This document shows, piece after piece, positions 44,505 through 58,261 of a DNA stretch of 64,000 bases. Below the pieces are notes generated by a model, which ran no database searches, was not told the origin of the DNA, and saw only the letters and a list, made by a program, of their open reading frames with translations. This DNA comes from Candidatus Culexmicrobium cathedralense (GTDB taxonomy: Archaea > Thermoproteota > Methanomethylicia > Culexarchaeales > Culexmicrobiaceae), in NCBI GenBank assembly GCA_025061115.1, contig JANZKC010000002.1, forward strand, positions 160,001 through 224,000, read 5' to 3'. The position numbers were made by a program, and so were the translations under genes. Position 1 is the first letter of the stretch. Each line of letters opens with the position of its first letter.

Positions 44505-44581
<77 letters not shown>

Positions 44582-44651
44582 CCACCATCAATTTCATGGC
44601 AATTCATGAACATGAACATCAGATATAAGCATCAAGTATGATATTCAATTA

Positions 44652-45220
44652 ATGGGTTTCAAGTTGGACCCCGAGTTAATAGACATATTTAAGCTATCAC
44701 AGAATGTCAGACACAGAATTCTAATCTATGTTCTTAAGAAGGGGATTTCGTCAACTATGTTAGGCTTTTCATCAAACTACATTAATAGAGTTAAGCGCGG
44801 CGTACTTAGAGTTAGTGACAATTTAGTTAAAGCCTGCCTCAAGCATATAACTCTTGAGGAATACATCCAATTGACAGGAGATAAGCTAGAAACAGCTGAC
44901 GCAGGCACCGTCATTAGAGTTCTAAAATCAGCGCTACATAGTAATTGATTTAGTTGTTAAAGAAGCCGATGAAGAAGTTAGGTTGGCTTCTAGGCAGTAT
45001 AGAGTTACTGAAGACGATATTTAAAAATTTGAGAGAATTTTAGCCCAAAAAGCTAAGTCAACCGCTAAAGCTCACAGAATCTACCTTCATAGAGCTCTCA
45101 ACTCATTAAACTTTACATTAACCCCCGACAAACTAAGCGACTACATCCTAGAGCTAATTGAGAGTAGCGGTAAAGGAGCAGCCAGACATACAGCCAAATC
45201 TCTAAAACTCCTCATCCAGC
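44652..45220 (+). pseudogene. N-terminal remnant of a tRNA-adjacent HTH-integrase
   Basis: HTH-like ORF continues after a frameshift as IDLVVKE...YRVTEDDI*KFERIL...ARHTAKSLKLLI (TAA at 45022); no catalytic domain. Confidence 0.6.
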
Positions 45221-45314
45221 CAAATACAAAATCCAACTGCATTCCTCGAATTAACTATATTATTAACTAAAACTTATGAACAACACATTCTGAGAAAGAA
45301 AAATTGTTTATAAA

Positions 45315-46646
45315 TTAATATTCTTTAGGTGAAGAATCACTGTAGAGCATTACATTAAAGGATATTTCAGCAGGAATATCAGTGAAAAGAGTCTTCATAT
45401 AGTGCTTCACAAGCATGGGTTCATAGCCTCCTTGTTTATTGGGATCCAGCAACCCTATTGACGAAGGCTCAACTGTAAAGGTAGCATAAGTCATGCTATT
45501 TACTACTTCATGTTTAACTTCCGCAATGCCATCACCTGGATCTGTCTGGTCAAACCATTTAAAGTATGTACCTGATGGAGATGAGTAGCTTACTTCAACT
45601 AGAAGTGTTGGCTTTTGCCCACTAGTACCAGCTGTGACAGAATACGTTATGGTGCTTAATGGTCCACCTACATTCTTGGGGCCCCAATCCCATAAAACTT
45701 GTCCTTCGAAATAACGAGTTTTCCAATCAGTTCTAGTTATAAACACTCCAGGTGGGCGAGAAATACCGAACGGACTATATCCCTTAGCTGAATGAATTAC
45801 ATATGCGTAAAAGAACTTATAGACTGTGCCATCAGTTGCGGTTTGACTACCATAATAATATTCCGCTTTAACCCACATTTCACCAGCAAGCTCACCCAGC
45901 CATCCCCTAGCCTCCGCATTTTTCCAACCAATATACCCCAGAAAATCAAAGCCTTCCATTCTAGTTATGCTATTAGTTGAGAATGCCTTTTTATTCGGTG
46001 TACTTTGAAACAGCATCATACAATCAGCAATGTCGCTGACTAATAGATGGACATTCTCAACCAAAATTATACCATAGGGATTATAAGAGAAGGCAATAAT
46101 TGACGATTTAAAAAGTCTAGAATCAATCTTCAATCCTTCATAGCGCTTGTCTGAAACTCTCTGTTCAGGATCTACAAGGAATATTTTAGGCTTATAATTC
46201 AGTTTACCTAAAGCCTTAAGCCATAGTTCATAACATAGACTAGCATACTCTACATTATTGCCAGTAATTATTATCATTTGAAAACGACCACTCTTATTTA
46301 ATATACTCGATAACAAGCCACTCAACTCATCAATTCTATCCATCACAACAATATCGTTAACATGAGAGACAACAAATAATGGCATACCTGCTCTAACTCT
46401 TCCAGATAACTCTGAGATATTATTAACCACAGCAACCTTTGAACCAATAGCTTGTTCAAGACCTCTAATGTCAATTACAGCACTAGCAGTACCCCCCATT
46501 ATGAAAACATCACCCACAATATTCCTTGAGACTCCCTCCCCTATGGCCGTATTACTAGGAAGCAAAATAACATAGAAAAGCAGGATTATAGGGAATGTCA
46601 ACAACAGCAATTTCCTTTTTGATATACTTCTTTTAAAGCTCATCAA
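45315..46646 (-). CDS. Secreted/surface protein with beta-rich C-terminal domain
   Basis: Basic plus hydrophobic N-terminal signal; 443 aa; AT-rich. Confidence 0.7.
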   Translation of the reverse strand: MMSFKRSISKRKLLLLTFPIILLFYVILLPSNTAIGEGVSRNIVGDVFIMGGTASAVIDIRGLEQAIGSKVAVVNNISELSGRVRAGMPLFVVSHVNDIVVMDRIDELSGLLSSILNKSGRFQMIIITGNNVEYASLCYELWLKALGKLNYKPKIFLVDPEQRVSDKRYEGLKIDSRLFKSSIIAFSYNPYGIILVENVHLLVSDIADCMMLFQSTPNKKAFSTNSITRMEGFDFLGYIGWKNAEARGWLGELAGEMWVKAEYYYGSQTATDGTVYKFFYAYVIHSAKGYSPFGISRPPGVFITRTDWKTRYFEGQVLWDWGPKNVGGPLSTITYSVTAGTSGQKPTLLVEVSYSSPSGTYFKWFDQTDPGDGIAEVKHEVVNSMTYATFTVEPSSIGLLDPNKQGGYEPMLVKHYMKTLFTDIPAEISFNVMLYSDSSPKEY

Positions 46647-46815
46647 ATTTCACCTATTTTTATTTTAAAGTATATCAAATATTTAAATTCTAATCTAAAA
46701 TACATAAGTAGTACGAATGATGTCTTCTCAAAACATCCTAGAATGTTATGAAGTTAGTTAGGAAATAATCAATCTAAAAGGCCATTTACATAGATTAAGA
46801 AACCTATATATTGTT

Positions 46816-47022
46816 TTGTATTATGTTGAAACATACTATTTTATGGTGAATTTATTGGTTGATGTTAGTTTTGGAGTTAGGGTTAGCGTTTCAATTGATG
46901 AGGAGCTACTGGAGTGGGCTAAAAAACAGGTTGAGACCAGGAAATTTCGAAGTGTAAGTCACGTAGTTGAGTATGCTTTAATGCTTCTTAAAAAGCTGAG
47001 GAGAAATAATACTAAAATTTAG
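46816..47022 (+). CDS. Ribbon-helix-helix (CopG-like) regulator
   Basis: RVSVSIDEELLEW...FRSVSHVVEYAL; start uncertain. Confidence 0.7.
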   Translation: MYYVETYYFMVNLLVDVSFGVRVSVSIDEELLEWAKKQVETRKFRSVSHVVEYALMLLKKLRRNNTKI

Positions 47023-47107
47023 TTTTCATGAAGTTAGATTTGTGTAGAAAAGAGTTAATATACAAAACTTTAATTTAATTTAGTAGGGAAAAGCCGTTAA
47101 ATTGCAG

Positions 47108-47471
47108 ATGAGAAAAATGCCCAACAATTCTATTGAAAACATTATGAAAGAGTACTCTGAAGCTCTTGTCACGTTTTTGAAACATTTGGCAAGATCATTA
47201 CAATGATCGGTAAGCTTGAGAAGAAAACTGGAAAAATATTGAAGAGATGATGAAGGAGTTTTTAAGGCCTGAAACTCTAGTGGAGCTTTCCAAAAAGGTT
47301 CCTCCAGAGATATTTGGAGAGATGATGTCTTTAATGCTTGAAGTAGCAACTATGAAGTCCAAGGATATTGCTAAACTTACTCCTGAAGAAAAGATAAAGC
47401 TTGGACGTAAATTCCTCAATTTAGCAGAACGATTGAAAAAACTGTTCAAAGAGCTCGAGGAAATTAAATAA
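47108..47471 (+). pseudogene. Frameshifted helical hypothetical protein
   Basis: Reads MRKMPNN...ALVTF / ETFGKIITMIGKLEKKTGK / NIEEMMKEFL... across two shifts at T and A homopolymer runs. Confidence 0.5.
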
Positions 47472-47481
47472 GCATAATTAG

Positions 47482-47970
47482 GTGAGAATCTTGCGATCCA
47501 TACAGTTGTCAGAGCGTATCTTTGAAAATACTTATGATCTAATAAGTAAGTCCATAAACTCGGCGCTGACGGATTTATCCAATAAATCACTCATCAATTT
47601 ACAGCAACTCCTAAATCCACTTGAAACAATAATTGATAATTGCTCTCTAAATTGGCTTAGGTTGTTTAGTATTTTAAAAATGGATGTCGAAAGAGTAGTA
47701 AATTATATGGCGCAAAAACAAATAGATCCGAATGCGTTTTTTGACTACTTGATAAATGCTTTCGAACTGCTAGTAAGCAGAAACATCCAAGTTGTATACA
47801 TTCACGTTGATCTCTCTGAAGATGAAGAAGACATTGATTGGAAGGTGATTGATGTAACGATCAAAGTGAAAAGTGAAGATTACGACTCGCTTCTAAGTAT
47901 TTGGATTGAGTTGGCGAGGATGAAGCCTAGAGCGTGGAAGAATGTTTACGTAGGGGTTGAACCCCTTTGA
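47482..47970 (+). CDS. Putative antitoxin partner of the HEPN gene
   Basis: Acidic C-terminal half and 4-nt overlap with HEPN; alternative ATG at 47680. Confidence 0.45.
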   Translation: MRILRSIQLSERIFENTYDLISKSINSALTDLSNKSLINLQQLLNPLETIIDNCSLNWLRLFSILKMDVERVVNYMAQKQIDPNAFFDYLINAFELLVSRNIQVVYIHVDLSEDEEDIDWKVIDVTIKVKSEDYDSLLSIWIELARMKPRAWKNVYVGVEPL

Positions 47971-48389
47971 GTATAGGTTTAGAGGTTGCTGATGATTTTC
48001 TCCTCTTCGCTATAGAAATTAAAGATCAACTAGAAGCTCGCCAAGCTGGGAAATATAAAATTACGTTGACTCAAGGAGTTTTGAGGACTTGCATCAGCAG
48101 AGCATATTATGCAGCTTTTCTATATGCTAGATGTGTAACCGATTTAGAACGGTATAGGCGTCCAATCGGAATTAGAAGTGCTTCAATACATAATAAGGTA
48201 ATAGACCGACTTAAAGAGATGGACATACCAGTTGCCGACATGCTTTATAATCTTAAGAAAGCGAGAGGGAAAGCAGACTATAATATTCGCTCGACAATAA
48301 ATCCTAACAAAGTAATTTAGGCAGTAAAGGTTGCTCTAAAGATAATAGATTACCTTAAAAGAGCTTTCCCAAACAAATTACAGTCATAA
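47967..48389 (+). pseudogene. HEPN-domain protein with premature TAG at 48318-20
   Basis: SRAYYAAF, H..VI and R..ADY motifs; frame stays open 22 codons past the TAG, encoding the expected terminal helix. Confidence 0.65.
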
Positions 48390-48550
48390 TTAATTTGATC
48401 ATCAATAGAATTATTATTCGATCTTGTTCAGCTTCATGTTGAGCTGATCATTAATTGAGGTCATTAAGTCTAGTGGTTTTTGTACTTGTAGGCTAAAAAA
48501 GGGGTTTTATTGGAAAATTGTGTGGTTGTGTTTTACCAGGTGTAGTTGAT

Positions 48551-49080
48551 CTATTTTTCTTTTAGTTCTTTGATGATCCTGCACATTTCTTCTATTTCTC
48601 TTTCTCTCTTTTCTATTTCTTCTTCTAGGCGTTTTTCTAGTTCTCTTACTTTTCTTCTTCTTCTGTAAATATGGTTAGAGCGGGGCTGCCTTCCTATACT
48701 CTTCGACTAGCCTTTCTATGAGGATTGGGTGTTCTAGGTCTTCTATGCCTGCTAGGAAGTAGACTTGATGTATGCCTGCCTTGTGCCCCATCCACGCTTC
48801 TACTACCCATGGATCTACTCCGCTGAGTTTGCACCACGTTGAGAAGTACTTTCTCAAGACGTGAAATCTGCACATGTGCCATTTTCGGTGCTTCATGTTT
48901 TTGCCTACTCTTCGCAGCAGCCTCCTCCACATTGTTCTTAGTGTGTGAGGATCTAGCCTTCTACAGCTCCTGTTTACTATTAAGTGGGATTCATCGGTTA
49001 GTTGCTCTCCTTTCTGCATTCTCTCCTTCAAGTACATTAACGTGAATTTGAGGGCTTCACTTGTGCAGAAAGCAGATATT
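48551..49080 (-). pseudogene. Tyrosine recombinase catalytic-domain remnant
   Basis: HVLRKYF, WMGH and VY motifs; a frameshift precedes the coiled-coil tail LTIFTEEEEKVRELEKRLEEE...; N-terminus missing. Confidence 0.82.
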
Positions 49081-49115
49081 CCACCGATCAACATTACTTC
49101 ATAGTTGAGAAATAA

Positions 49116-50126
49116 ATGAGCCACCTACTAATTACTCTTCCAGGGCTTGAGCAAATAGTCGCACAAGAAGTTAAGAGAAAGGGAGGCATTATTGTCAATT
49201 CAGCCAGAGGCAGAGTACTTGCCTCAAAATTGGTCAGCACAAATCTTAGAACTATAGAGTCAATTGCAGAAGTACTCGTACACTGCAAGATATCAGATAC
49301 AAGTAGGAAAAGTTTGAGGCACTTAATTCGAGAACTACTACGCTCAAGCGAAAAAGTTAGAAATGCCATACCAAGCTCAGCAAAAATAACTGTGAAAAGC
49401 GCAGTCTATTCTAAACCTAAGCCAATAGACTATAAAACTCTAGAAATTATCGCAGCAAGAGAACTAGCTAGAGTATACGAAGTCAAATTGTCGCCAAAAC
49501 ATGGGGGCCTAACTTTAAGAGTTGAAATTTTGAATGAGGAGTTGGTAATAGGGAAGGTGCTAAAATCAAATCTTCATAGAAGAAAATACACTAAGTTTAA
49601 ACACCCAGCAATGATAAATCCGCTAATCGCAGCTGCAACTGCTTACTTAGCAAAATTAAGTAAAAAAGACTTGATATTAGATCCATTTTGCGGATCCGGA
49701 ACTATACCGATTGAAGTCGCTCTCACATTAAATTGTGAAGCACAAGGCTCAGACATCAATTCAAGATACGTTAAAGGCGCATTAAAAAACGCGAAGGAAG
49801 CAAATGCAACGGCTCAAGTTAACTTCTTCACATCAGCCATATCGAAATTAGGAGTAAAAAGAAGGTACACGACAATCATAACAGACCCTCCTAGAGGAAT
49901 GAGACTTCAAGTTGAAGATTTAAGTTCCATCTACAGAGAACTCGCCATGGCAGCGAGGAATGCGCTGGTTGACAGCGGTAAATTGATAGTTGCAGTTTTA
50001 CGAGAAGCAAGGAAAATTTCTTCTCGAAAACTAGGTGAGGTGGGCTTCAAGCTCATTAAAGAACTCAGCATACTTCAAGGAGGAGTAAACGTGTACATTC
50101 AATATTTTGAGAAAGAAAGTAAATAG
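49116..50126 (+). CDS. trm14: THUMP-domain tRNA guanine-N2 methyltransferase (Trm14/TrmN-like)
   Basis: PGLE, LHRRKY...HPA, DPFCGSGTIPIE and TDPP. Confidence 0.78.
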   Translation: MSHLLITLPGLEQIVAQEVKRKGGIIVNSARGRVLASKLVSTNLRTIESIAEVLVHCKISDTSRKSLRHLIRELLRSSEKVRNAIPSSAKITVKSAVYSKPKPIDYKTLEIIAARELARVYEVKLSPKHGGLTLRVEILNEELVIGKVLKSNLHRRKYTKFKHPAMINPLIAAATAYLAKLSKKDLILDPFCGSGTIPIEVALTLNCEAQGSDINSRYVKGALKNAKEANATAQVNFFTSAISKLGVKRRYTTIITDPPRGMRLQVEDLSSIYRELAMAARNALVDSGKLIVAVLREARKISSRKLGEVGFKLIKELSILQGGVNVYIQYFEKESK

Positions 50127-52231: not shown

Positions 52232-53281
52232 TTAAGTTTCTTTCTTTTCTTTAACTTCAAGCCTACACTCGTAAATCACGTCACCGTCGACTACTCTGAA
52301 AATCCTGACAAAATCGCTTTCAATTTTCATCAAAATAGGCTTCCCAATACCCTCGGCAATCTTCCTAAGATCCTCCAAATCTTCAAGCTCGAAAACCACA
52401 CTACCACCTTCAGAGAAGCTCTTAACTTTAACTAAATAATCCTCCAAGGGCTTTACCAGATCCTTCCAAACATCCTTTTTGCCTTCACCAGCTCTGAAAA
52501 AGTTGAAGTATATCGACGGAGCCAATCCCGCCAAACTTAAACCTAACAATGCATAAAATCCGTAAAGCTTATTCTTAACATCTTCATGAACGATCACTTG
52601 GCTCCTTGTGACAGAGTCAGATTTTTGATGATTTAAGCCGTCAATGCTAATCATCGAGCCTTCAACTCCACCGTACTTAATAGTTATAGTTAATTGTGGA
52701 GAGAAAGATGATTCAATAAATCCAACAACGTCATTTGAAGCTAGAACATGAATGTTCGGAGTCAAAGTTAAAGTATAACTGCTCGCATAAGCTCCAGTCT
52801 CGTCTTCAATACGTTTAATCAATGAAAAGATATCCCCAAGATTCAAAGTTAAATTAAAATTAAAAGAAGCATCATTTCCATAAAGCTTCATTGAACCCTT
52901 AGCAGGACCGGGTAAATCCTTAACCCAACCGCTAGGCGAACTTAAACTAAAGTTAACATTGTAATTTACAACTATTGTGGATGGAGTGTCAATGAGGAAG
53001 CGATATGTAAAATCAATGACTATTCTCTTCACGAGCTTCAAATAAAGTGTACCTTCACCTGGACCGAGCACAGTAGTGTTGTAGAGAACATTGGGATGAA
53101 TAAAAGCTAAGTAACTATACCTACCAAAATTCGCATAATTGCATAAAGACACCTGCTTACTCTCCACCACAGGAATTTGATAGGTAAAGTATAGCATAAC
53201 AATTGAAAACAATGTTAAAAACGTGAATAACACCAAGAAAAGCCTTGTCTTTCGCAAAAAATTATGTTTAAACATCATCAC
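52232..53281 (-). CDS. DUF5305-like membrane-anchored protein of SipW loci
   Basis: N-terminal TM, beta-rich exterior, second TM, and C-terminal LEDL..IA...GKPI....DGDVIY. Confidence 0.62.
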   Translation of the reverse strand: MMMFKHNFLRKTRLFLVLFTFLTLFSIVMLYFTYQIPVVESKQVSLCNYANFGRYSYLAFIHPNVLYNTTVLGPGEGTLYLKLVKRIVIDFTYRFLIDTPSTIVVNYNVNFSLSSPSGWVKDLPGPAKGSMKLYGNDASFNFNLTLNLGDIFSLIKRIEDETGAYASSYTLTLTPNIHVLASNDVVGFIESSFSPQLTITIKYGGVEGSMISIDGLNHQKSDSVTRSQVIVHEDVKNKLYGFYALLGLSLAGLAPSIYFNFFRAGEGKKDVWKDLVKPLEDYLVKVKSFSEGGSVVFELEDLEDLRKIAEGIGKPILMKIESDFVRIFRVVDGDVIYECRLEVKEKKET

Positions 53282-53353
53282 ACCAGATTTACCATTTAAT
53301 TACGTTTCTTTTCAAGTTGGATAAATACTTTTCTGAAAATCGCTATTTACAAG

Positions 53354-53983
53354 TTATGGAGAAAACGCCACATTGTCAATCACATGAATAGTAAAATGTA
53401 GAGATATGTCCTCTAAACCATTATCGCTCGTAGAATTAAAGCTTACTTTTATCCAAACAATAACCTTCTGGCTCGGGTCGAAGAATATAGGCGGTGCCAC
53501 AGCGTCGTTAAAAGGAAGATCATCAGCCTCAACATGCCCCCAAACTACTTTGAAATCACCCCTGTCAAATGGACCATAAAAGTAAATCTCAGTCTCAAGA
53601 TAATCCTGTAATTCACTTTGATTTTCAAAAACCACGTGAATAGCTTTAATTTTAGCTGGCAAAGTACCATCATTACAAACAACTAGTCCAATCCAAGCAT
53701 ACCAACCGGAACATACGTTTTCACACATTACTTTTAAAGTGTAAGGATCAATTAGCACCATTTGGTCATCCTCTATTGGCGCAACTCTTCTAAACTCTTT
53801 GGGAACCACAGCCTTGTATGAACCTATCTTCACATAGAAGTGACCCATTTTTATCTTACCAGATATCTGTAAAATTTCATTCCAATGACTGTACGCAAAC
53901 CCGCTTATAACCAGTACAATTAAAAGGATGCTGAAGACAAATGATAACTCAAAACTTAGATTATTATGCTTTTTCACTCTCAC
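53354..53983 (-). CDS. SipW-signal (TasA/AbpA-like) fibre protein 3
   Basis: AYS|HWNEILQISGKIKMG; V.NDGTLP. Confidence 0.68.
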   Translation of the reverse strand: MRVKKHNNLSFELSFVFSILLIVLVISGFAYSHWNEILQISGKIKMGHFYVKIGSYKAVVPKEFRRVAPIEDDQMVLIDPYTLKVMCENVCSGWYAWIGLVVCNDGTLPAKIKAIHVVFENQSELQDYLETEIYFYGPFDRGDFKVVWGHVEADDLPFNDAVAPPIFFDPSQKVIVWIKVSFNSTSDNGLEDISLHFTIHVIDNVAFSP

Positions 53984-53986
53984 TAC

Positions 53987-54247
53987 CTAAGTCACCTCCC
54001 CTATTTTTCTAACTGGAAGCAAAACAATTCTTGAGAACATAAAATTCGAAAGCTCAAAAAGACCAATTAAGATTGAGAAAAGATTACTCCAAAAGATCAC
54101 TAGAAGCGTATTGACAGTGATGAAGAGCTGGTCAATATTCGAATTACAAAGAATAATGTTGCTCATAGCTTGAAATGGTTGTGCAGGACCGATGAGTGGA
54201 AAATCATCTACGCAACCTTTCATGCGCACAACTCTATACATAGTCAT
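53987..54247 (-). CDS. Small hydrophobic protein
   Basis: GAGGTGA RBS; fills the operon gap exactly. Confidence 0.45.
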   Translation of the reverse strand: MTMYRVVRMKGCVDDFPLIGPAQPFQAMSNIILCNSNIDQLFITVNTLLVIFWSNLFSILIGLFELSNFMFSRIVLLPVRKIGEVT

Positions 54248-54285
54248 CTCGCCTTCACCTCAAAATTTAATTTTTATCACATCTT

Positions 54286-55545
54286 TCATCTCCATCTACC
54301 AAATTTCCTCCTTTTCATAAAATAATTATAAATAAAGTATGAAAAGACAAATGAAACAGAAATTATAAAACTTATAAGATTAATTTGATTATAGTAAATG
54401 AAGCTGAAAATCGAAAATACTATGATTTTCATATAAATTGAAATCCACCCTAATTTGGGTATAATAAGTAGGAGCTTGCCTTTAATTTGACTTGAATAAA
54501 CGGGATCGTAATCAATAGCGTTGTTGGCATCGCCCTTAGTTACGAAATATCCTTGTTTTATAGCCACAACCCTATGAAGTACAGCGCCTTCGCGGCCCAT
54601 ATATTGAATTATATCACCTAACTGAATCTTGTTAGGTGGGACTTTAACTAGAATGGCTATGTCTCCAACGTTTAATGTTGGTTGCATGCTACCGCTCATG
54701 ACAACTGATGGGAATACGCTCAATAATCCTGTGCTAAACCAAACTGCTAAAACAAATATTAAAATAGGCGCTAAGGCCTTGGCTGGGCTCTCCTTCTTTT
54801 TCCAACCCCTAAAAACATCAATTTTCAATCCAGCGCTTCTAAGCACCTCCCTTGGAGTAGCATAATTTATTGCTACAAGGCTTATCGTTGGAGAAACGAC
54901 ACCTAATAGTGATTTTAAGCTCCAAGGAAGGTCTGGCAATACAGGGGAAAACCACTGGAAAACTGAAAGAGGCATTACGTAGGCTATTGAAGCTATTGGA
55001 CCAGCAAGCAGTGCAAGATACGAAGCTAATAAGTTCTGAGCCAAAGCTGGAAGGAAATCAGAGCCTAAGAATTCAACAAAGAGTAGAGGCTTAACATTAG
55101 ATAATGGCATCCTCAACAAAGCTAAAACTGGGCTGTGAAGAAGCGACATAAGCATAAGTGAAAGGAGAGGTTTACGCCTACCCAAATTCCTTAAAATATG
55201 CGCCCTCGAAAATTCAACTCCAAAAACCGATGAAAGCACCATAATTGAGTTGAGTATAAGCATTCTAGGCGCAAATGAAACTGGACTCCTACCAAATTTA
55301 GTGATAAGACCAGCATCAACAAGAAGAGCTATCTGAAAAATTGCTGCAAGAAAGGCAGCCAAATAAACAATTCTCCACTTAGAATCTAATCCTCCAAGTA
55401 AATTATTAGCGAAAATCGAAATTACAGCAACACCCACCCAACACAAGGAAGGTACTAAGTATGCTAACAAGCCAGCGGGCATATAAAAATATAAGAGCAA
55501 CTTAACTGATAAAAGAGAAATTAATACCAAGATCGTTTTATTCAT
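54286..55545 (-). CDS. sipW: SipW/Sec11-type signal peptidase I with extended multi-TM N-terminal domain
   Basis: VMSGSMQPTLNVGD, VLHRVV and TKGDANN..D (Ser-His type). Confidence 0.88.
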   Translation of the reverse strand: MNKTILVLISLLSVKLLLYFYMPAGLLAYLVPSLCWVGVAVISIFANNLLGGLDSKWRIVYLAAFLAAIFQIALLVDAGLITKFGRSPVSFAPRMLILNSIMVLSSVFGVEFSRAHILRNLGRRKPLLSLMLMSLLHSPVLALLRMPLSNVKPLLFVEFLGSDFLPALAQNLLASYLALLAGPIASIAYVMPLSVFQWFSPVLPDLPWSLKSLLGVVSPTISLVAINYATPREVLRSAGLKIDVFRGWKKKESPAKALAPILIFVLAVWFSTGLLSVFPSVVMSGSMQPTLNVGDIAILVKVPPNKIQLGDIIQYMGREGAVLHRVVAIKQGYFVTKGDANNAIDYDPVYSSQIKGKLLLIIPKLGWISIYMKIIVFSIFSFIYYNQINLISFIISVSFVFSYFIYNYFMKRRKFGRWR

Positions 55546-55622
55546 TCACATCACCATTATGTTATGATATAAATAAAAAATAGGAAATTATTTAACAATT
55601 AATTATTTCAGCAATAATTTCA

Positions 55623-56315
55623 TTAACCCTTGTTCCATTGAATGCCAATAATTTCAACTGTCAGGACATACGTGTGACACTCTTCTGCCTCTTGCTTAAA
55701 TTCCAAGTCAATTTCAGCCTTATGCGTTCTACATGGATCTATCTGATAAGGTACGCTATCCGTGACTTCCAAGTTTATCACTTCAATGTCGCAGGCGTCA
55801 ACAACACCATTGCCATTAACATCTTCATAAATACTGCCTATGTAATCTCCATCAGGGTCATACCACAATAAGTCGTAGATCTTATGGCCAGTAGCATTCC
55901 TCTTCTCGCCAGTAATGTTATAGCCAATCACTTTAATTGGAATTGTACCAATGTTATGTAGCTTGAAGACTATGCCCACAACGTATTGTGGATATGCATT
56001 ATCAATAACTATTATGAGCTTCTTATAACCTTCTTTTCCAGTGTGTGGATCCGTTATATTTTCAGCAAAGTAAGCAGTGCAATTTCCAACATCTTTACCA
56101 AGATATTCACCAGCTGTTTTTTGCGTGTGATCCTCGTTCCAGTGATACTCATTACAGCTGGGCGGTTCAGCGTAGTCAAATGATAATGTCAAGCTACCCA
56201 TGTTTATAGTGCCTTCAATAGTTACTACATCACTCCAATGAGCATAAACAGCTCCAAGCAGAGATAAGAGTACAACTATTGATAGGGAAAGCAAGCTTGT
56301 TTTACGAGTATTCAT
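55623..56315 (-). CDS. SipW-signal (TasA/AbpA-like) fibre protein 2
   Basis: VYA|HWSDVVTIEGTINMG; NAYP, HNIGTIP and QWN. Confidence 0.75.
   Translation of the reverse strand: MNTRKTSLLSLSIVVLLSLLGAVYAHWSDVVTIEGTINMGSLTLSFDYAEPPSCNEYHWNEDHTQKTAGEYLGKDVGNCTAYFAENITDPHTGKEGYKKLIIVIDNAYPQYVVGIVFKLHNIGTIPIKVIGYNITGEKRNATGHKIYDLLWYDPDGDYIGSIYEDVNGNGVVDACDIEVINLEVTDSVPYQIDPCRTHKAEIDLEFKQEAEECHTYVLTVEIIGIQWNKG
56209..56267. repeat. 59-bp direct repeat, copy 1
   Basis: 58/59 identical to 56910-56968. Confidence 0.95.
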
Positions 56316-56332
56316 ATCTAATCAACCCCTAC

Positions 56333-57016
56333 CTATGCCTTATTCCACTGTACAAACTCAAATGTAACTGAGAATGTGTAAGTATGACACTCCTCAGCCG
56401 TCTGCTTAAAGTCTACATCAATGCAAACCAGGTAGCAGTTACAAGGTTCAAGTTGACCATCTTCAGGAACATAAGCAACAACTCTAACATTCATTATATC
56501 GCCTGCTGGATCTACTAGTGCACCCTCCCAAATCCACGCTTTTAATGTTGTGTTGTAATACCAAAGATCCTGCCTCCAAGTGAGGTTTTCACCATCCGTT
56601 ACGTCGTAGCCAGTTAAGTTCGCTTTAGTATACGTAGCAGGTATGGTTCCAGCATTCTTCAACATAAATTCGATATGTACATCCCACTGCGGGTATGCAT
56701 TTGCCATTAGAATTGTCATCTTCTTAGCTACGGTTTCAGGCGGATCATGATGAACGCTAGTTTCAAAGTCGCTTAAAGTAATCGTAGCATTTGCAACCCA
56801 CGTCTTATTTGCTGGCGGAAGGAATTCCGCTTCCGGAACACCATTGATAGTTTCATAGTGAGTAACCGAGTTGTTTAAAATGCCTACTATAAGCTCACCC
56901 ATATGCACTGTGCCTTCAATAGTTACTACATCACTCCAATGAGCATAAACAACTCCAAGCAGAGATAAAATAACTATCAGCAGTCCAAAAGTGCCTATCA
57001 AACTCTTACTTTTCAT
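56333..57016 (-). CDS. SipW-signal (TasA/AbpA-like) fibre protein 1
   Basis: VYA|HWSDVVTIEGTVHMG; NAYP, KNAGTIP and QWN. Confidence 0.75.
   Translation of the reverse strand: MKSKSLIGTFGLLIVILSLLGVVYAHWSDVVTIEGTVHMGELIVGILNNSVTHYETINGVPEAEFLPPANKTWVANATITLSDFETSVHHDPPETVAKKMTILMANAYPQWDVHIEFMLKNAGTIPATYTKANLTGYDVTDGENLTWRQDLWYYNTTLKAWIWEGALVDPAGDIMNVRVVAYVPEDGQLEPCNCYLVCIDVDFKQTAEECHTYTFSVTFEFVQWNKA
56910..56968. repeat. 59-bp direct repeat, copy 2
   Basis: 58/59 identical to 56209-56267. Confidence 0.95.
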
Positions 57017-57156
57017 TTACTGATCACCTCTTAATTTTCGGGCTATCATCGCCTAGATTAAGCTTTAAAACTAAGCTTTAAACTCTAGGCTTTAACGGGG
57101 GCTCCCAATAGTCCCCCGGCTTTACAGCAGCATATACTATGGATCTCGTTTAACGC

Positions 57157-57198
57157 TTTAAATTGCCGATTCAAATGGTCTGGAAATGAGCCATTTGG
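57157..57198 (-). promoter_or_regulatory. Candidate operator (two CCAWWTGG-like boxes, 20-bp period) plus TATA box of the fibre operon
   Basis: TCAAATGG 57171-78, CCATTTGG 57191-98 and TTTAAA 57157-62. Confidence 0.5.
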
Positions 57199-57221
57199 CT
57201 TTAAACGATGCGAAATACAAA

Positions 57222-57545
57222 TTACATTAACAAACGCTTTAAGCTTTCAAAATCCTTTTTAAGCCTATATTTCCTCATATTTTTATCTATAGAAATATAT
57301 TCTATTACACCAACATTTATTAGATTTTGAAGAATTTTTGACATTTTCGAGTAGGGCACCCCAACTCGCCGAGCAATTTCTCTTAACGTCACTTCTTCAT
57401 TTTTGCAAAGCTCAGCAATTGTCCTAAATGATAAATCCTCTTTAAACATGCTTTTAGCAAGTTCCAAGAGAAGCAATGTATGCAAGTCAACCTCCTGAAT
57501 TTTGATTTCACTAGCATTACTTTTTAGCCTAATATTTCGTCTCAA
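57222..57545 (-). CDS. Winged-HTH (ArsR-like) regulator
   Basis: TLREIARRVGV.YS...L..L...GVIEY. Confidence 0.78.
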   Translation of the reverse strand: MRRNIRLKSNASEIKIQEVDLHTLLLLELAKSMFKEDLSFRTIAELCKNEEVTLREIARRVGVPYSKMSKILQNLINVGVIEYISIDKNMRKYRLKKDFESLKRLLM

Positions 57546-57595
57546 GGCTTATCAAGCTTAAAATAATAATATCTCCCTATGCTTTACTTTGCGCT

Positions 57596-57623
57596 CCATT
57601 TGGACTAAAATTAAACCAAATGG
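57596..57623 (-). promoter_or_regulatory. Second copy of the candidate operator
   Basis: CCATTTGG 57596-603 and CCAAATGG 57616-23, same 20-bp period. Confidence 0.5.
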
Positions 57624-57639
57624 CATAAAAATAAGGGTT

Positions 57640-57966
57640 TTAGGTTAGGATGTCTTTTAATTGCTCGTACTTTTTGGAAAGCTTGTAAATCCTAATTCTT
57701 GGACTTGCATAGAAATATTCTACAACTCCCTTCTCAACCAAGAGATCAAGATGCCTAGATAAATTTGAATGCGATATGCCTACTTTTCTCGCCAATTCTC
57801 TCAAACTTGCACCTTCAATTTTGCATAATTCACGTACGATTTTAAATCTCACATTATCCCGATATGTCCGCTTTAAAAACTCAACAATTACTCGATTTTC
57901 TTTCTCCATTTTAATGTAATCTCTTCTATCGATTTTAAAATGTTTATCATCATAAGTACTATTCAA
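57640..57966 (-). CDS. Winged-HTH (ArsR-like) regulator, paralog of its neighbour
   Basis: SLRELARKVGISHSNLSRHL..L..KGVVEY. Confidence 0.82.
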   Translation of the reverse strand: MNSTYDDKHFKIDRRDYIKMEKENRVIVEFLKRTYRDNVRFKIVRELCKIEGASLRELARKVGISHSNLSRHLDLLVEKGVVEYFYASPRIRIYKLSKKYEQLKDILT

Positions 57967-58156: not shown

Positions 58157-58261
58157 TGGCGGGCCCGCGGGGACTTGAACCCCGGACCTTCGGCTCCGCA
58201 GGCCGATTCGAGGTGAAGCTTAAAAGCTTCACTCGCTCTGTCCAAGCTGAGCTACGGGCCC
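58157..58261 (-). tRNA. tRNA-Arg(GCG) with a 27-nt non-canonical intron (58207-58233)
   Basis: Removing 58207-58233 gives a cloverleaf nearly identical to tRNA-Arg(CCG), with anticodon arm TCGGC-CT-GCG-GA-GCCGA and encoded CCA. Confidence 0.92.

Follow-up and report, generated by a model that had tools for sequence, protein, structure and literature searches.

Genes and features at the locus

The DNA analysed here is a stretch of 64,000 nt of Candidatus Culexmicrobium cathedralense, a Bathyarchaeia-like archaeon (contig JANZKC010000002.1, positions 160,001 to 224,000), in the following called the window; coordinates are those of the window. A first description, made from the letters alone without database searches (the sequence-only reading), had recognized between positions 52232 and 57966 eight co-oriented genes and interpreted them as a TasA-like fibre system with its own signal peptidase and regulators. 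All eight open reading frames (ORFs) do reside on the minus strand in this block, but only seven of them are credible genes. The cassette is a real seven-gene locus, which most likely serves the production of secreted protein fibres related to TasA of Bacillus. Its features, beginning with the regulators, are the following (PilA, PilB and PilC are labels of our own).

57640..57966, minus strand: regulator 1, a small ArsR/MarR-like winged helix-turn-helix (wHTH) protein of 108 aa (HTH_24 3.9e-10, HTH_20 2e-9, HTH_5 1.8e-8)
57222..57545, minus strand: wHTH regulator 2, 107 aa, paralog of regulator 1 (TrmB 1.2e-8, HTH_24 9.9e-7)
57023..57118, minus strand: candidate promoter/operator and 5' leader of the PilA gene (conserved blocks in the same-family genome G003)
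56333..57016, minus strand: putative fibre subunit PilA, 227 aa, signal peptide 1-25 (family profile match 4.4e-65)
55623..56315, minus strand: putative fibre subunit PilB, 230 aa, signal peptide 1-25 (match to AbpX, PDB 9sj2)
56196..56267, minus strand: putative gene-conversion tract in PilB, 72 nt (92% identity to 56897-56968 in PilA)
54286..55545, minus strand: dedicated signal peptidase I, 419 aa (TIGR02228 4.3e-24, 85.2 bits, cut-off 51.85)
53987..54247, minus strand: ORF of 86 aa, probably not a gene (no family match, no tblastn match)
53354..53983, minus strand: divergent third subunit PilC, 209 aa, signal peptide 1-32, candidate minor subunit (hhalign)
52232..53281, minus strand: DUF5305 membrane protein, 349 aa, putative peptidase accessory (PF17231 2.9e-10, 40.4 bits, cut-off 29)
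58160..58261, minus strand: intron-bearing tRNA, boundary marker outside the system (Rfam RF00005 43.9 bits)

The eighth ORF (53987-54247), which had been counted as a small hydrophobic protein, gave no Pfam or NCBIfam match at all, and tblastn revealed no counterpart in any of 17 related loci (8 + 9). In both same-family relatives, G003 and G004, the PilC gene directly adjoins or overlaps that of the peptidase, which leaves no room for such a gene. Because of the missing homologs and this arrangement, we concluded that the ORF, which is located in a 300-nt spacer, is probably spurious.

Relationship of the secreted proteins to AbpX

The two similar secreted proteins of the first description, PilA and PilB, are 41% identical. 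PilC shares only 21% identity with PilB, but profile-profile comparison with the PilA/PilB family by hhalign (probability 98.9%, E 3.9e-17, 187 columns) indicates that it is a true paralog, as had been suggested. The motifs quoted for the three proteins were confirmed, since Y24, H26, W27, I33, G35, M39, G40, N121, G123, T124 and P126 are invariant among them. Their signal peptides start with MKSKSLIG..., MNTRKTSLL... and (V)RVKKHNNLS..., contain no RR motif and are predicted to end with AYA (PilA), AYA (PilB) and AYS (PilC) in front of HWSD, HWSD and HWNE, respectively. The predicted mature N-terminus is HWSDVVTIEGT in both PilA and PilB and HWNEILQISGK in PilC. A C-terminal membrane anchor was detected in none of the three subunits. 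The expected SipW-cognate signal peptide was recognized by the corresponding hidden Markov model (HMM; TIGR04088, cut-off 19) in PilB (20.0 bits) but not in PilA (16.9 bits).

To the mature N-terminus HW(S/N) that had been postulated, a correction has to be made. In 20 of 20 PilA/PilB proteins from ten genomes the sequence x-W-x-D was found at the predicted cleavage sites, while mature residue 1 is His in only 11 and Ala in the remaining nine. The tryptophan at position 2 and the acidic residue at position 4 are thus kept, and the conserved N-terminal unit appears to be W2 and D4 and not 'HW'.

A search of the PDB sequences with PilB alone identified AbpX of Pyrodictium abyssi (9sj2, E 3.2e-4). 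With a profile of 47 sequences (PilB, PilA and 45 homologs), E values of 3.1e-8 for 9sj2 and 2.1e-7 for 9rhp were obtained, the only ones below 0.1 among five matches at E ≤ 10. Neither TasA, AbpA and CanA nor thread proteins were among these five. Hence, the nearest characterised relative is AbpX, and not TasA or AbpA of Pyrobaculum, to which the locus had been compared before. AbpX (9sj2, 9rhp) has been shown by cryo-electron microscopy (cryo-EM) to form fibres by strand donation (bioRxiv 10.64898/2026.01.04.697558). The profile aligned the mature N-terminus of AbpX, QWSETLSLSATISTGSL, with HWSDVVTIEGT.EMGSL of the family. As diagnostic properties of AbpX, the text of the same preprint gives an aromatic residue at mature position 2, an acidic residue at position 4, an isoelectric point (pI) of about 4 and about 15% D+E. 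All three subunits exhibit these properties, being slightly less acidic than AbpX, with mature pI values of 4.51 (PilA), 4.56 (PilB) and 4.89 (PilC) and D+E contents of 13.4%, 16.1% and 13.6%, respectively.

PilC on its own gave merely chance-level matches to PDB sequences, AbpX not being among them. In the word-indexed protein database two homologs of PilC were found among 76 candidates, one of which was PilC itself, and orthologs with 25-34% identity were identified in seven other sequences (related loci and protein database). The sequence comparisons argue that the three subunits are paralogs belonging to the AbpX branch of the TasA superfamily. They also uphold the core of the sequence-only reading, a putative non-type-IV fibre system of this superfamily with a dedicated Ser-His peptidase and three paralogs sharing a conserved N-terminal strand.

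Another property of the PilB clade is the loop D-V-N-G-N-G-x-V-D (D-x-N-x-N-G-x-x-D), in PilB located at residues 165-176 (DVNGNGVVDACD). It shows a weak dockerin likeness (Dockerin_1 of Pfam, E 0.011; PDB dockerin, E 0.38) and may serve as a calcium site away from the strand-groove interface.

Models of the subunit and strand complementation

The AlphaFold2 model of PilB (pLDDT 87.4) comprises the signal-peptide helix (residues 3-26), a donor-strand stretch modelled with lower confidence (pLDDT 64-67 at residues 21-40) and an all-beta sandwich beginning at residue 44. For the trimer of mature PilB, a score of 0.68 was obtained as the median of three runs (0.00, 0.68 and 0.70), while the best of three controls scored 0.00. 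In the calibration of such complex models the mark was reached by 20 of 30 solved pairs and by one of 23 single chains. At least 13% of the contacts agreed between the trimer runs, and the pLDDT of the partner was at least 79. At the modelled interface, the segment 26-42 of one copy is oriented parallel to residues 97-110 and antiparallel to residues 210-226 of the next copy, a geometry which, as modelled, is that of donor-strand complementation. Multimer modelling of N-terminal strand complementation, which had been recommended as a check, supports this arrangement at the level of a model.

The same sequences might also encode secreted beta-sandwich proteins which are processed in the SipW manner without polymerising, for instance surface- or S-layer-associated binding proteins or camelysin-like proteins, whose N-terminus would be needed for recognition by the peptidase only. 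Such a function could explain why the Peptidase_M73 family (PF12389, camelysin/TasA) stayed below its cut-off of 22.5 with 18.8 and 13.5 bits, covering only residues 12-47 and 18-52 (PilC gave no match), and why the fold searches yielded generic sandwiches, carbohydrate-binding modules and adhesin domains. It would also be compatible with the dockerin-like loop of PilB and with the trimer run that scored 0.00. On the other hand, the family profile matches a protein whose donor-strand fibres have been solved by cryo-EM, and the type of locus agrees with that of fibre loci. Moreover, the N-terminal strand is amphipathic, has lower confidence in the monomer and docks confidently into the neighbouring copy in two of three trimer runs. 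We therefore regard non-polymerising proteins as very improbable.

Several results nevertheless weigh against an AbpX-type fibre. Foldseek did not disclose any match of the PilB model in the PDB at E ≤ 1e-3. By VIA-align, the best hit was the generic beta-sandwich ApaG (Z 6.0), and the values for the Saci_0406 thread (7pnb; Z 5.0, 137 aligned residues, rmsd 7.0), the TasA fibre (8aur; Z 4.7, 126 aligned residues, rmsd 3.9, 19% identity) and CanA (Z 4.1) did not leave the generic background. One of the three trimer runs scored 0.00, as mentioned, and the pass of the trimer may reflect a memory of the solved TasA or AbpX fibres. The locus contains only three subunit-like genes, all of 209-230 aa, among which no tip protein was recognisable, and no membrane anchor was recognisable either. 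Finally, the groove-side calcium ligands of AbpX are replaced in the HMM alignment, D18 by T43, D46 by T92 (with low posterior), D48 by K94 and E52 by K98, so that the calcium-triggered step of AbpX may not apply here.

As to the fold searches (VIA-align, run wide as well as on the Foldseek shortlist), no chain of AbpX, AbpA or Tafi came up from the fold libraries, and the comparisons of the modelled subunit would neither back nor contradict the assignment to the TasA/AbpX fold. Likewise, the loss of calcium ligands does not exclude a membership in the AbpX group, since calcium coordination is frequent among AbpX homologs, but not universal (bioRxiv 10.64898/2026.01.04.697558, text). The ligand located on the strand, E4 of AbpX, is aligned to D29 and thus kept as Asp. 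K94 and K98 are nearly invariant across the subunit family, and in the trimer model residue 98 pairs with residue 31, by which the strand comes to lie next to K98. From the models, a direct Asp-Lys contact in place of a bridging calcium ion is possible. Other acidic residues in the vicinity of the ligand positions are D47, D89 and E95.

The signal peptidase and the DUF5305 protein

The Ser-His signal peptidase was verified by its match to TIGR02228 and by the residues Ser286, His324, Asp339 and Asp345, which are invariant in 16 of 16 homologs. The protein is composed of an eight-helix N-terminal domain (residues 1 to ~245), a transmembrane (TM) anchor (254-272), the catalytic domain (277-362) and two C-terminal helices. 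Its AlphaFold2 model (pLDDT 80.8) contains 11 long helices, eight of them before residue 230, with which the hydrophobic segments agree. The polytopic N-terminal domain of roughly 250 residues was missing from the earlier description. In a Foldseek comparison, human SEC11 (7p2q; E 3.5e-4, 26% identity) was the nearest structure to the catalytic domain, and the SipW equivalog model NF046067 gave 48.1 bits, far below its cut-off of 190. The enzyme is of the Sec11/archaeal type. SipW is not known to possess an eight-helix N-domain. A second, short signal peptidase (SPase) is encoded elsewhere in the genome, outside the window (G000:C2:97723-98070), and the peptidase of the locus is thus an extra, dedicated copy. 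In Haloarcula, deletion of the corresponding peptidase TafD left TafA unprocessed and abolished the fibres (PMC11821415).

Residues 1-244 of the peptidase resemble SpdC of S. aureus (6u0o; Z 13.0, 217/248 residues aligned, rmsd 4.5) and the CAAX protease Rce1 (4cad; Z 11.3, 211/251 residues aligned, rmsd 4.2). The next membrane proteins among 48,161 representative PDB chains followed at Z values of only 6.0 and 5.7, and a structure search of the protein atlas also led to Rce1-like clusters (TM-score 0.64-0.65). PF02517 was found in none of the 16 homologs, and none of the columns of the N-domain contains an invariant histidine. E111 and R114 are presumably the only reminder of the first CPBP motif. 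We considered an active second protease and ruled it out, as the CPBP catalytic motifs and PF02517 are absent; the domain has a CPBP fold, but is probably not a protease. The main text of the abpX preprint (10.64898/2026.01.04.697558) does not mention CAAX, Rce1 or CPBP, and a literature search yielded no relevant paper that joins signal peptidase I, CAAX and TasA.

The DUF5305-like membrane protein had been identified correctly (PF17231); its TM segment is N-terminal and its ectodomain is large. Its proposed role as a membrane anchor has to be revised, since DUF5305 proteins are described as fused to, or duplicated with, signal peptidases and are read as accessories of these enzymes (bioRxiv 10.64898/2026.01.04.697558, PMC11821415). 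By analogy, the DUF5305 protein of the cassette is a putative peptidase accessory.

Regulators and the region upstream of the PilA gene

The two wHTH genes are indeed paralogs (39% identity over 76 aa, E 1e-19). In G003, an ortholog of regulator 1 with 78% identity is located at the same position, and that of regulator 2 is 49% identical. Using the two regulators as queries, tblastn revealed matches in none of eight and in one of nine loci. Pfam scanning of the upstream ORFs in five more distant loci (L001, L002, L004, L007 and L008; of seven listed) disclosed a small wHTH gene upstream of the first subunit gene in every one of them, belonging to HTH_45 in four loci and to Penicillinase_R in one. 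The association with a regulator seems to recur across loci with different families, which looks like non-orthologous replacement.

Upstream of the PilA gene, a G+C-rich inverted repeat (57096-57118; CGGGGG, 11 nt, CCCCCG) is directly followed by the TATA-like sequence TTAAAGC (57089-57095). A second conserved leader block of ~30 nt (57023-57053) ends in the ribosome-binding-like site GAGGTGAT. In G003, which represents a sister genus, the two blocks recur in near-identical form, whereas the remaining spacer has diverged, and a search of all 25 loci found them only in the own genome's loci and in G003. TTAAAGC occurs six times on the minus strand within 57062-57242 (181 nt); in the whole window, 45 matches on both strands compare with 22 expected. 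The inverted repeat, TTAAAGC and the second block constitute a candidate promoter/operator for the two regulators, based on two sequences. The PilA leader additionally contains a 13-nt tandem duplication (57062-57081) with TTTAAAGCTTA, which is absent from G003.

Probable gene conversion between PilA and PilB

The PilA and PilB genes share a direct repeat of 72 nt (92% identity) that spans the donor strand together with the last part of the signal peptide. Within this tract the identity at third codon positions amounts to 0.93, whereas the other 13 blocks of 15 codons exhibit values of 0.20-0.60, a contrast which points to gene conversion. Data from ten genomes show a similar pattern. Donor strands of paralogs within a genome have a mean identity of 0.74 compared with 0.60 and 0.54 for orthologs between genomes, while the subunit cores show the reverse (paralogs 0.36, orthologs 0.48 and 0.61). 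None of 20,000 re-pairings attained the observed value, though the genomes are related and their independence is overstated in this test. The pattern fits the assumption that the two subunits must suit the same groove or the same peptidase. PilA and PilB are probably able to enter the same fibre, and the heteropolymeric fibre that had been envisaged possibly exists, with indirect support from the near-identical, apparently gene-converted donor strands.

Distribution of the cassette and its neighbourhood

Homologs of the subunits were found in 223 proteins (E ≤ 1e-3) among 854 word-sharing candidates, the named ones originating from Bathyarchaeia or Bathyarchaeota. In addition, 2602 cluster representatives of the family were obtained at E ≤ 1e-3, 698 at 1e-10 and 73 at 1e-30, suggesting that the family is large in metagenomes. 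As to the synteny across relatives, recommended earlier as a check, PilA-like, PilB-like and polytopic peptidase genes are adjacent in eight of eight loci from genomes of related species, followed by a PilC-like gene in six and by DUF5305 in six, one of the contigs ending inside the peptidase gene. Within the class, a subunit match at E ≤ 1e-5 was obtained for 14 of 62 genomes (9 of 35 of high quality), and the full-length peptidase is present in nine of 30 relatives. The distribution of the cassette in the class is thus patchy, while three of four other genomes of the family carry it. In G003, all seven genes including both regulators are arranged in the same order. There, the cassette is situated on the other side of a gene pair for a methyltransferase and arginyl-tRNA synthetase (ArgRS), and the ArgRS gene is directly followed by the tRNA and HtpX. 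This suggests that the cassette, or its neighbours, moved as a block.

Some of the related loci deserve mention for their own features. Extra subunit-like genes absent from the window follow the peptidase gene in L002 (10673-11599), L007 (7591-8199) and L008 (10093-10746). In L002 the product (308 aa) is extended at its C-terminus by a long helical part and might represent a tip protein. In G005, a same-order genome, the homolog of the polytopic peptidase gene (G005:C12:4281-5432) contains an in-frame TAA and may be broken. Locus L001 (DAOUDP010000021.1, 7205-11904), from a metagenome-assembled genome (MAG) labelled Dehalococcoidia, has the same gene order and a PilB homolog with 62% identity. 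It represents either a cross-domain transfer or a mis-binned archaeal contig; transfer of AbpX between domains has been suggested (bioRxiv 10.64898/2026.01.04.697558).

The block had been described as AT-rich and located at the 3' end of a tRNA, and one may ask whether it is a horizontally acquired island integrated at this site. Its GC content is in fact lower than that of the window (0.370 vs 0.418), but the difference is modest and mostly caused by the regulator genes (0.32, compared with 0.39-0.41 for the subunit genes). The tRNA (58160-58261) is real and lies 193 nt upstream, but no direct repeat derived from the tRNA end was found at the far border to bound the block, nor does the block contain an integrase. 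The sole integrase fragment (48675-49124) is part of a separate AT-rich stretch, which starts from tRNA-Arg(CCG) at 44505-44581. The altered position relative to the methyltransferase-ArgRS pair in G003, the patchy occurrence in the class and the close homolog with the same gene order in the MAG labelled Dehalococcoidia would be in line with an island, but its presence in three of four other family genomes fits vertical inheritance together with local rearrangement. An island is therefore quite improbable.

The tRNA at 58160-58261 was overlooked by ARAGORN in its default mode because it contains an intron. Folded by hand, it appears to be Arg(GCG) with a non-canonical intron of ~27 nt between positions 26 and 27. 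ARAGORN -i reads the gene as Ala(AGC) and gives it an unusual additional arm, but the pair in the acceptor stem is G3:C70 and not G3:U70. Elsewhere in the window, tRNA-Arg(CCG) (44505-44581, plus strand) is followed by the mentioned AT-rich stretch (GC 0.31-0.36), which is without counterpart in G003. At the end of this region (44505-49124) a tyrosine recombinase is represented by its C-terminal portion (48675-49124; PF00589 8.5e-10, profile positions 76-158/172), and the region looks like an integrated element or a remnant of it.

Comparison with known fibre systems

The sequence-only reading had proposed the locus as a candidate for an uncharacterised system. This no longer holds, since this gene set is known from the archaeal abpX loci of a preprint of January 2026 (bioRxiv 10.64898/2026.01.04.697558); the type of system is thus already in print. 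According to the text of the preprint, these loci encode major and minor AbpX-like subunits, an SPase I with ten TM helices, DUF5305 and occasionally transcription factors. The cassette has in common with them the homology at profile level, an SPase I of the Sec11/archaeal type that possesses about ten TM helices, and genes for a DUF5305 protein, for transcription factors and for a minor subunit. It differs by the lack of a recognisable tip protein, which is predicted for abpX loci, by the T, T, K, K at the positions of the groove-side calcium ligands of AbpX, by the dockerin-like loop of the PilB clade and by its two co-linear main subunits, which are 41% identical and have a putatively gene-converted donor strand in common. 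Bathyarchaeia, the name used here for the affiliation of the host, is absent from the preprint's main text, and a literature search found no paper linking Bathyarchaeia or Bathyarchaeota with TasA in a meaningful way; the supplements of the preprint may list the clade. The locus is a new archaeal example of the abpX type and not a new system.

The tapA-sipW-tasA operon of Bacillus subtilis resembles the cassette by a secreted beta-sandwich subunit, strand donation and a dedicated Ser-His peptidase encoded in the operon (PMC9245690). The differences are that PF12389 remains below its cut-off here and covers the N-terminus only, that the peptidase fails the SipW equivalog model and that a TapA-like gene was not recognized in the cassette. 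The Bacillus operon does not include DUF5305 (bioRxiv 10.64898/2026.01.04.697558). With AbpA/AbpB of Pyrobaculum calidifontis the cassette has in common an archaeal donor-strand fibre of the TasA superfamily, in our case a putative one, and a wHTH regulator in the operon (PMC9245690). As far as described in that source, the Pyrobaculum operon lacks a dedicated peptidase and contains the TapA-like AbpB; neither is true here, and AbpA was not among the PDB sequence results at E ≤ 10. Haloarchaeal Tafi comprises the subunits TafA/TafE, the peptidase TafD, TafG (DUF5305) and the regulator TafB (PMC11821415, PMC12337348). As in the cassette, one cluster contains a regulator and a DUF5305 protein next to multiple subunit paralogs and their dedicated S26 peptidase (PMC11821415). 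Unlike the three subunits studied here, which lack a twin arginine, the Tafi proteins have Tat signal peptides, and TafD combines four TM helices with an Ig-like domain at the C-terminus (PMC11821415); the peptidase of the cassette has an N-terminal CPBP-like domain instead. Tafi subunits were not matched in the PDB sequence searches with PilB or the family profile. Rce1 and SpdC (CPBP/Abi) share the eight-helix fold with the peptidase N-domain only, which, unlike the CPBP proteases, gave no PF02517 match and has no invariant histidine.

Known systems also suggest a different architecture of the product, namely an adhesive pilus anchored to the cell and differentiated at its tip, as in chaperone-usher pili or Tafi, instead of a released matrix lattice. 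PilC would then be the tip or adaptor and DUF5305 the anchor. PilC does form a conserved third class, whose strand is more basic after position 4 (seven other sequences), Tafi is drawn with tip, adaptor and anchor (PMC11821415), and the TM segment and large ectodomain of the DUF5305 protein would suit an anchor. However, none of the subunits has a C-terminal TM segment, the N-terminus of the DUF5305 protein does not contain a W-x-D/E strand, and DUF5305 occurs fused to, or duplicated with, signal peptidases (bioRxiv 10.64898/2026.01.04.697558, PMC11821415). The larger subunit-like genes of related loci (308 aa in L002) are absent here, and AbpX of P. abyssi forms a lattice, not anchored pili (bioRxiv 10.64898/2026.01.04.697558). 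We regard an anchored pilus as rather unlikely.

Proposed mechanism

In our opinion, the product of the cassette in this Bathyarchaeia-like archaeon is very probably an AbpX-type extracellular fibre that belongs to the TasA superfamily and is built by donor-strand complementation. The sequences themselves establish the signal peptides, the catalytic residues, the paralogy and the conservation of the locus, and a model backs the insertion of the strand. In this process, the two small wHTH proteins would control the promoter upstream of the PilA gene. PilA, PilB and PilC, whose signal peptides end with (A/V)-Y-(A/S), would be exported as Sec pre-proteins and cut directly before H-W-(S/N)-(D/E) by the Ser-His-Asp peptidase of the locus, in analogy to TafD. 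The enzyme is probably assisted by the DUF5305 protein and by its fused, histidine-less CAAX-protease-like membrane domain. As the model suggests, the cut would free an amphipathic N-terminal strand of ~17 residues, which would slip into the next subunit, between its strand 97-110 and its C-terminal strand 210-226, and thereby complete the beta-sandwich of this neighbour. By repetition of this step, acidic matrix or adhesive fibres might arise, as known from AbpX, TasA and Tafi. PilA and PilB, whose donor strands are practically the same, could probably be built into one fibre, with the divergent PilC as a putative minor subunit.

A more far-reaching interpretation combines three assumptions: a pseudo-protease platform that couples cleavage to assembly, an Asp-Lys bridge that replaces the calcium clamp and a conversion that keeps the fibre mixed. 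The histidine-less CAAX-protease-like domain would hold the membrane-embedded signal peptide of the pre-subunit. Since only one residue separates the scissile bond from the beginning of the donor strand, cutting itself would release the strand into the next groove. In this Bathyarchaeia clade, a salt bridge between Asp of the strand and Lys of the groove would take over the task of calcium, which would have moved to the dockerin-like surface loop and govern bundling there. Gene conversion would keep the donor strands identical, so that the two subunits would co-polymerise into a mixed fibre. That all three assumptions apply together is unlikely.

Bathyarchaeia are abundant, uncultured archaea of sediments and vents, whose cell surfaces and biofilms are almost unstudied. 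The locus provides a concrete and expressible candidate for a matrix fibre of this group. The replacement of calcium ligands by lysines offers a test of how polymerisation is triggered in the TasA superfamily, and the CAAX-protease-like domain attached to the peptidase one of the role of this domain. Likewise, the putatively gene-converted common strand of two subunits would allow a test of whether such fibres are mixed.

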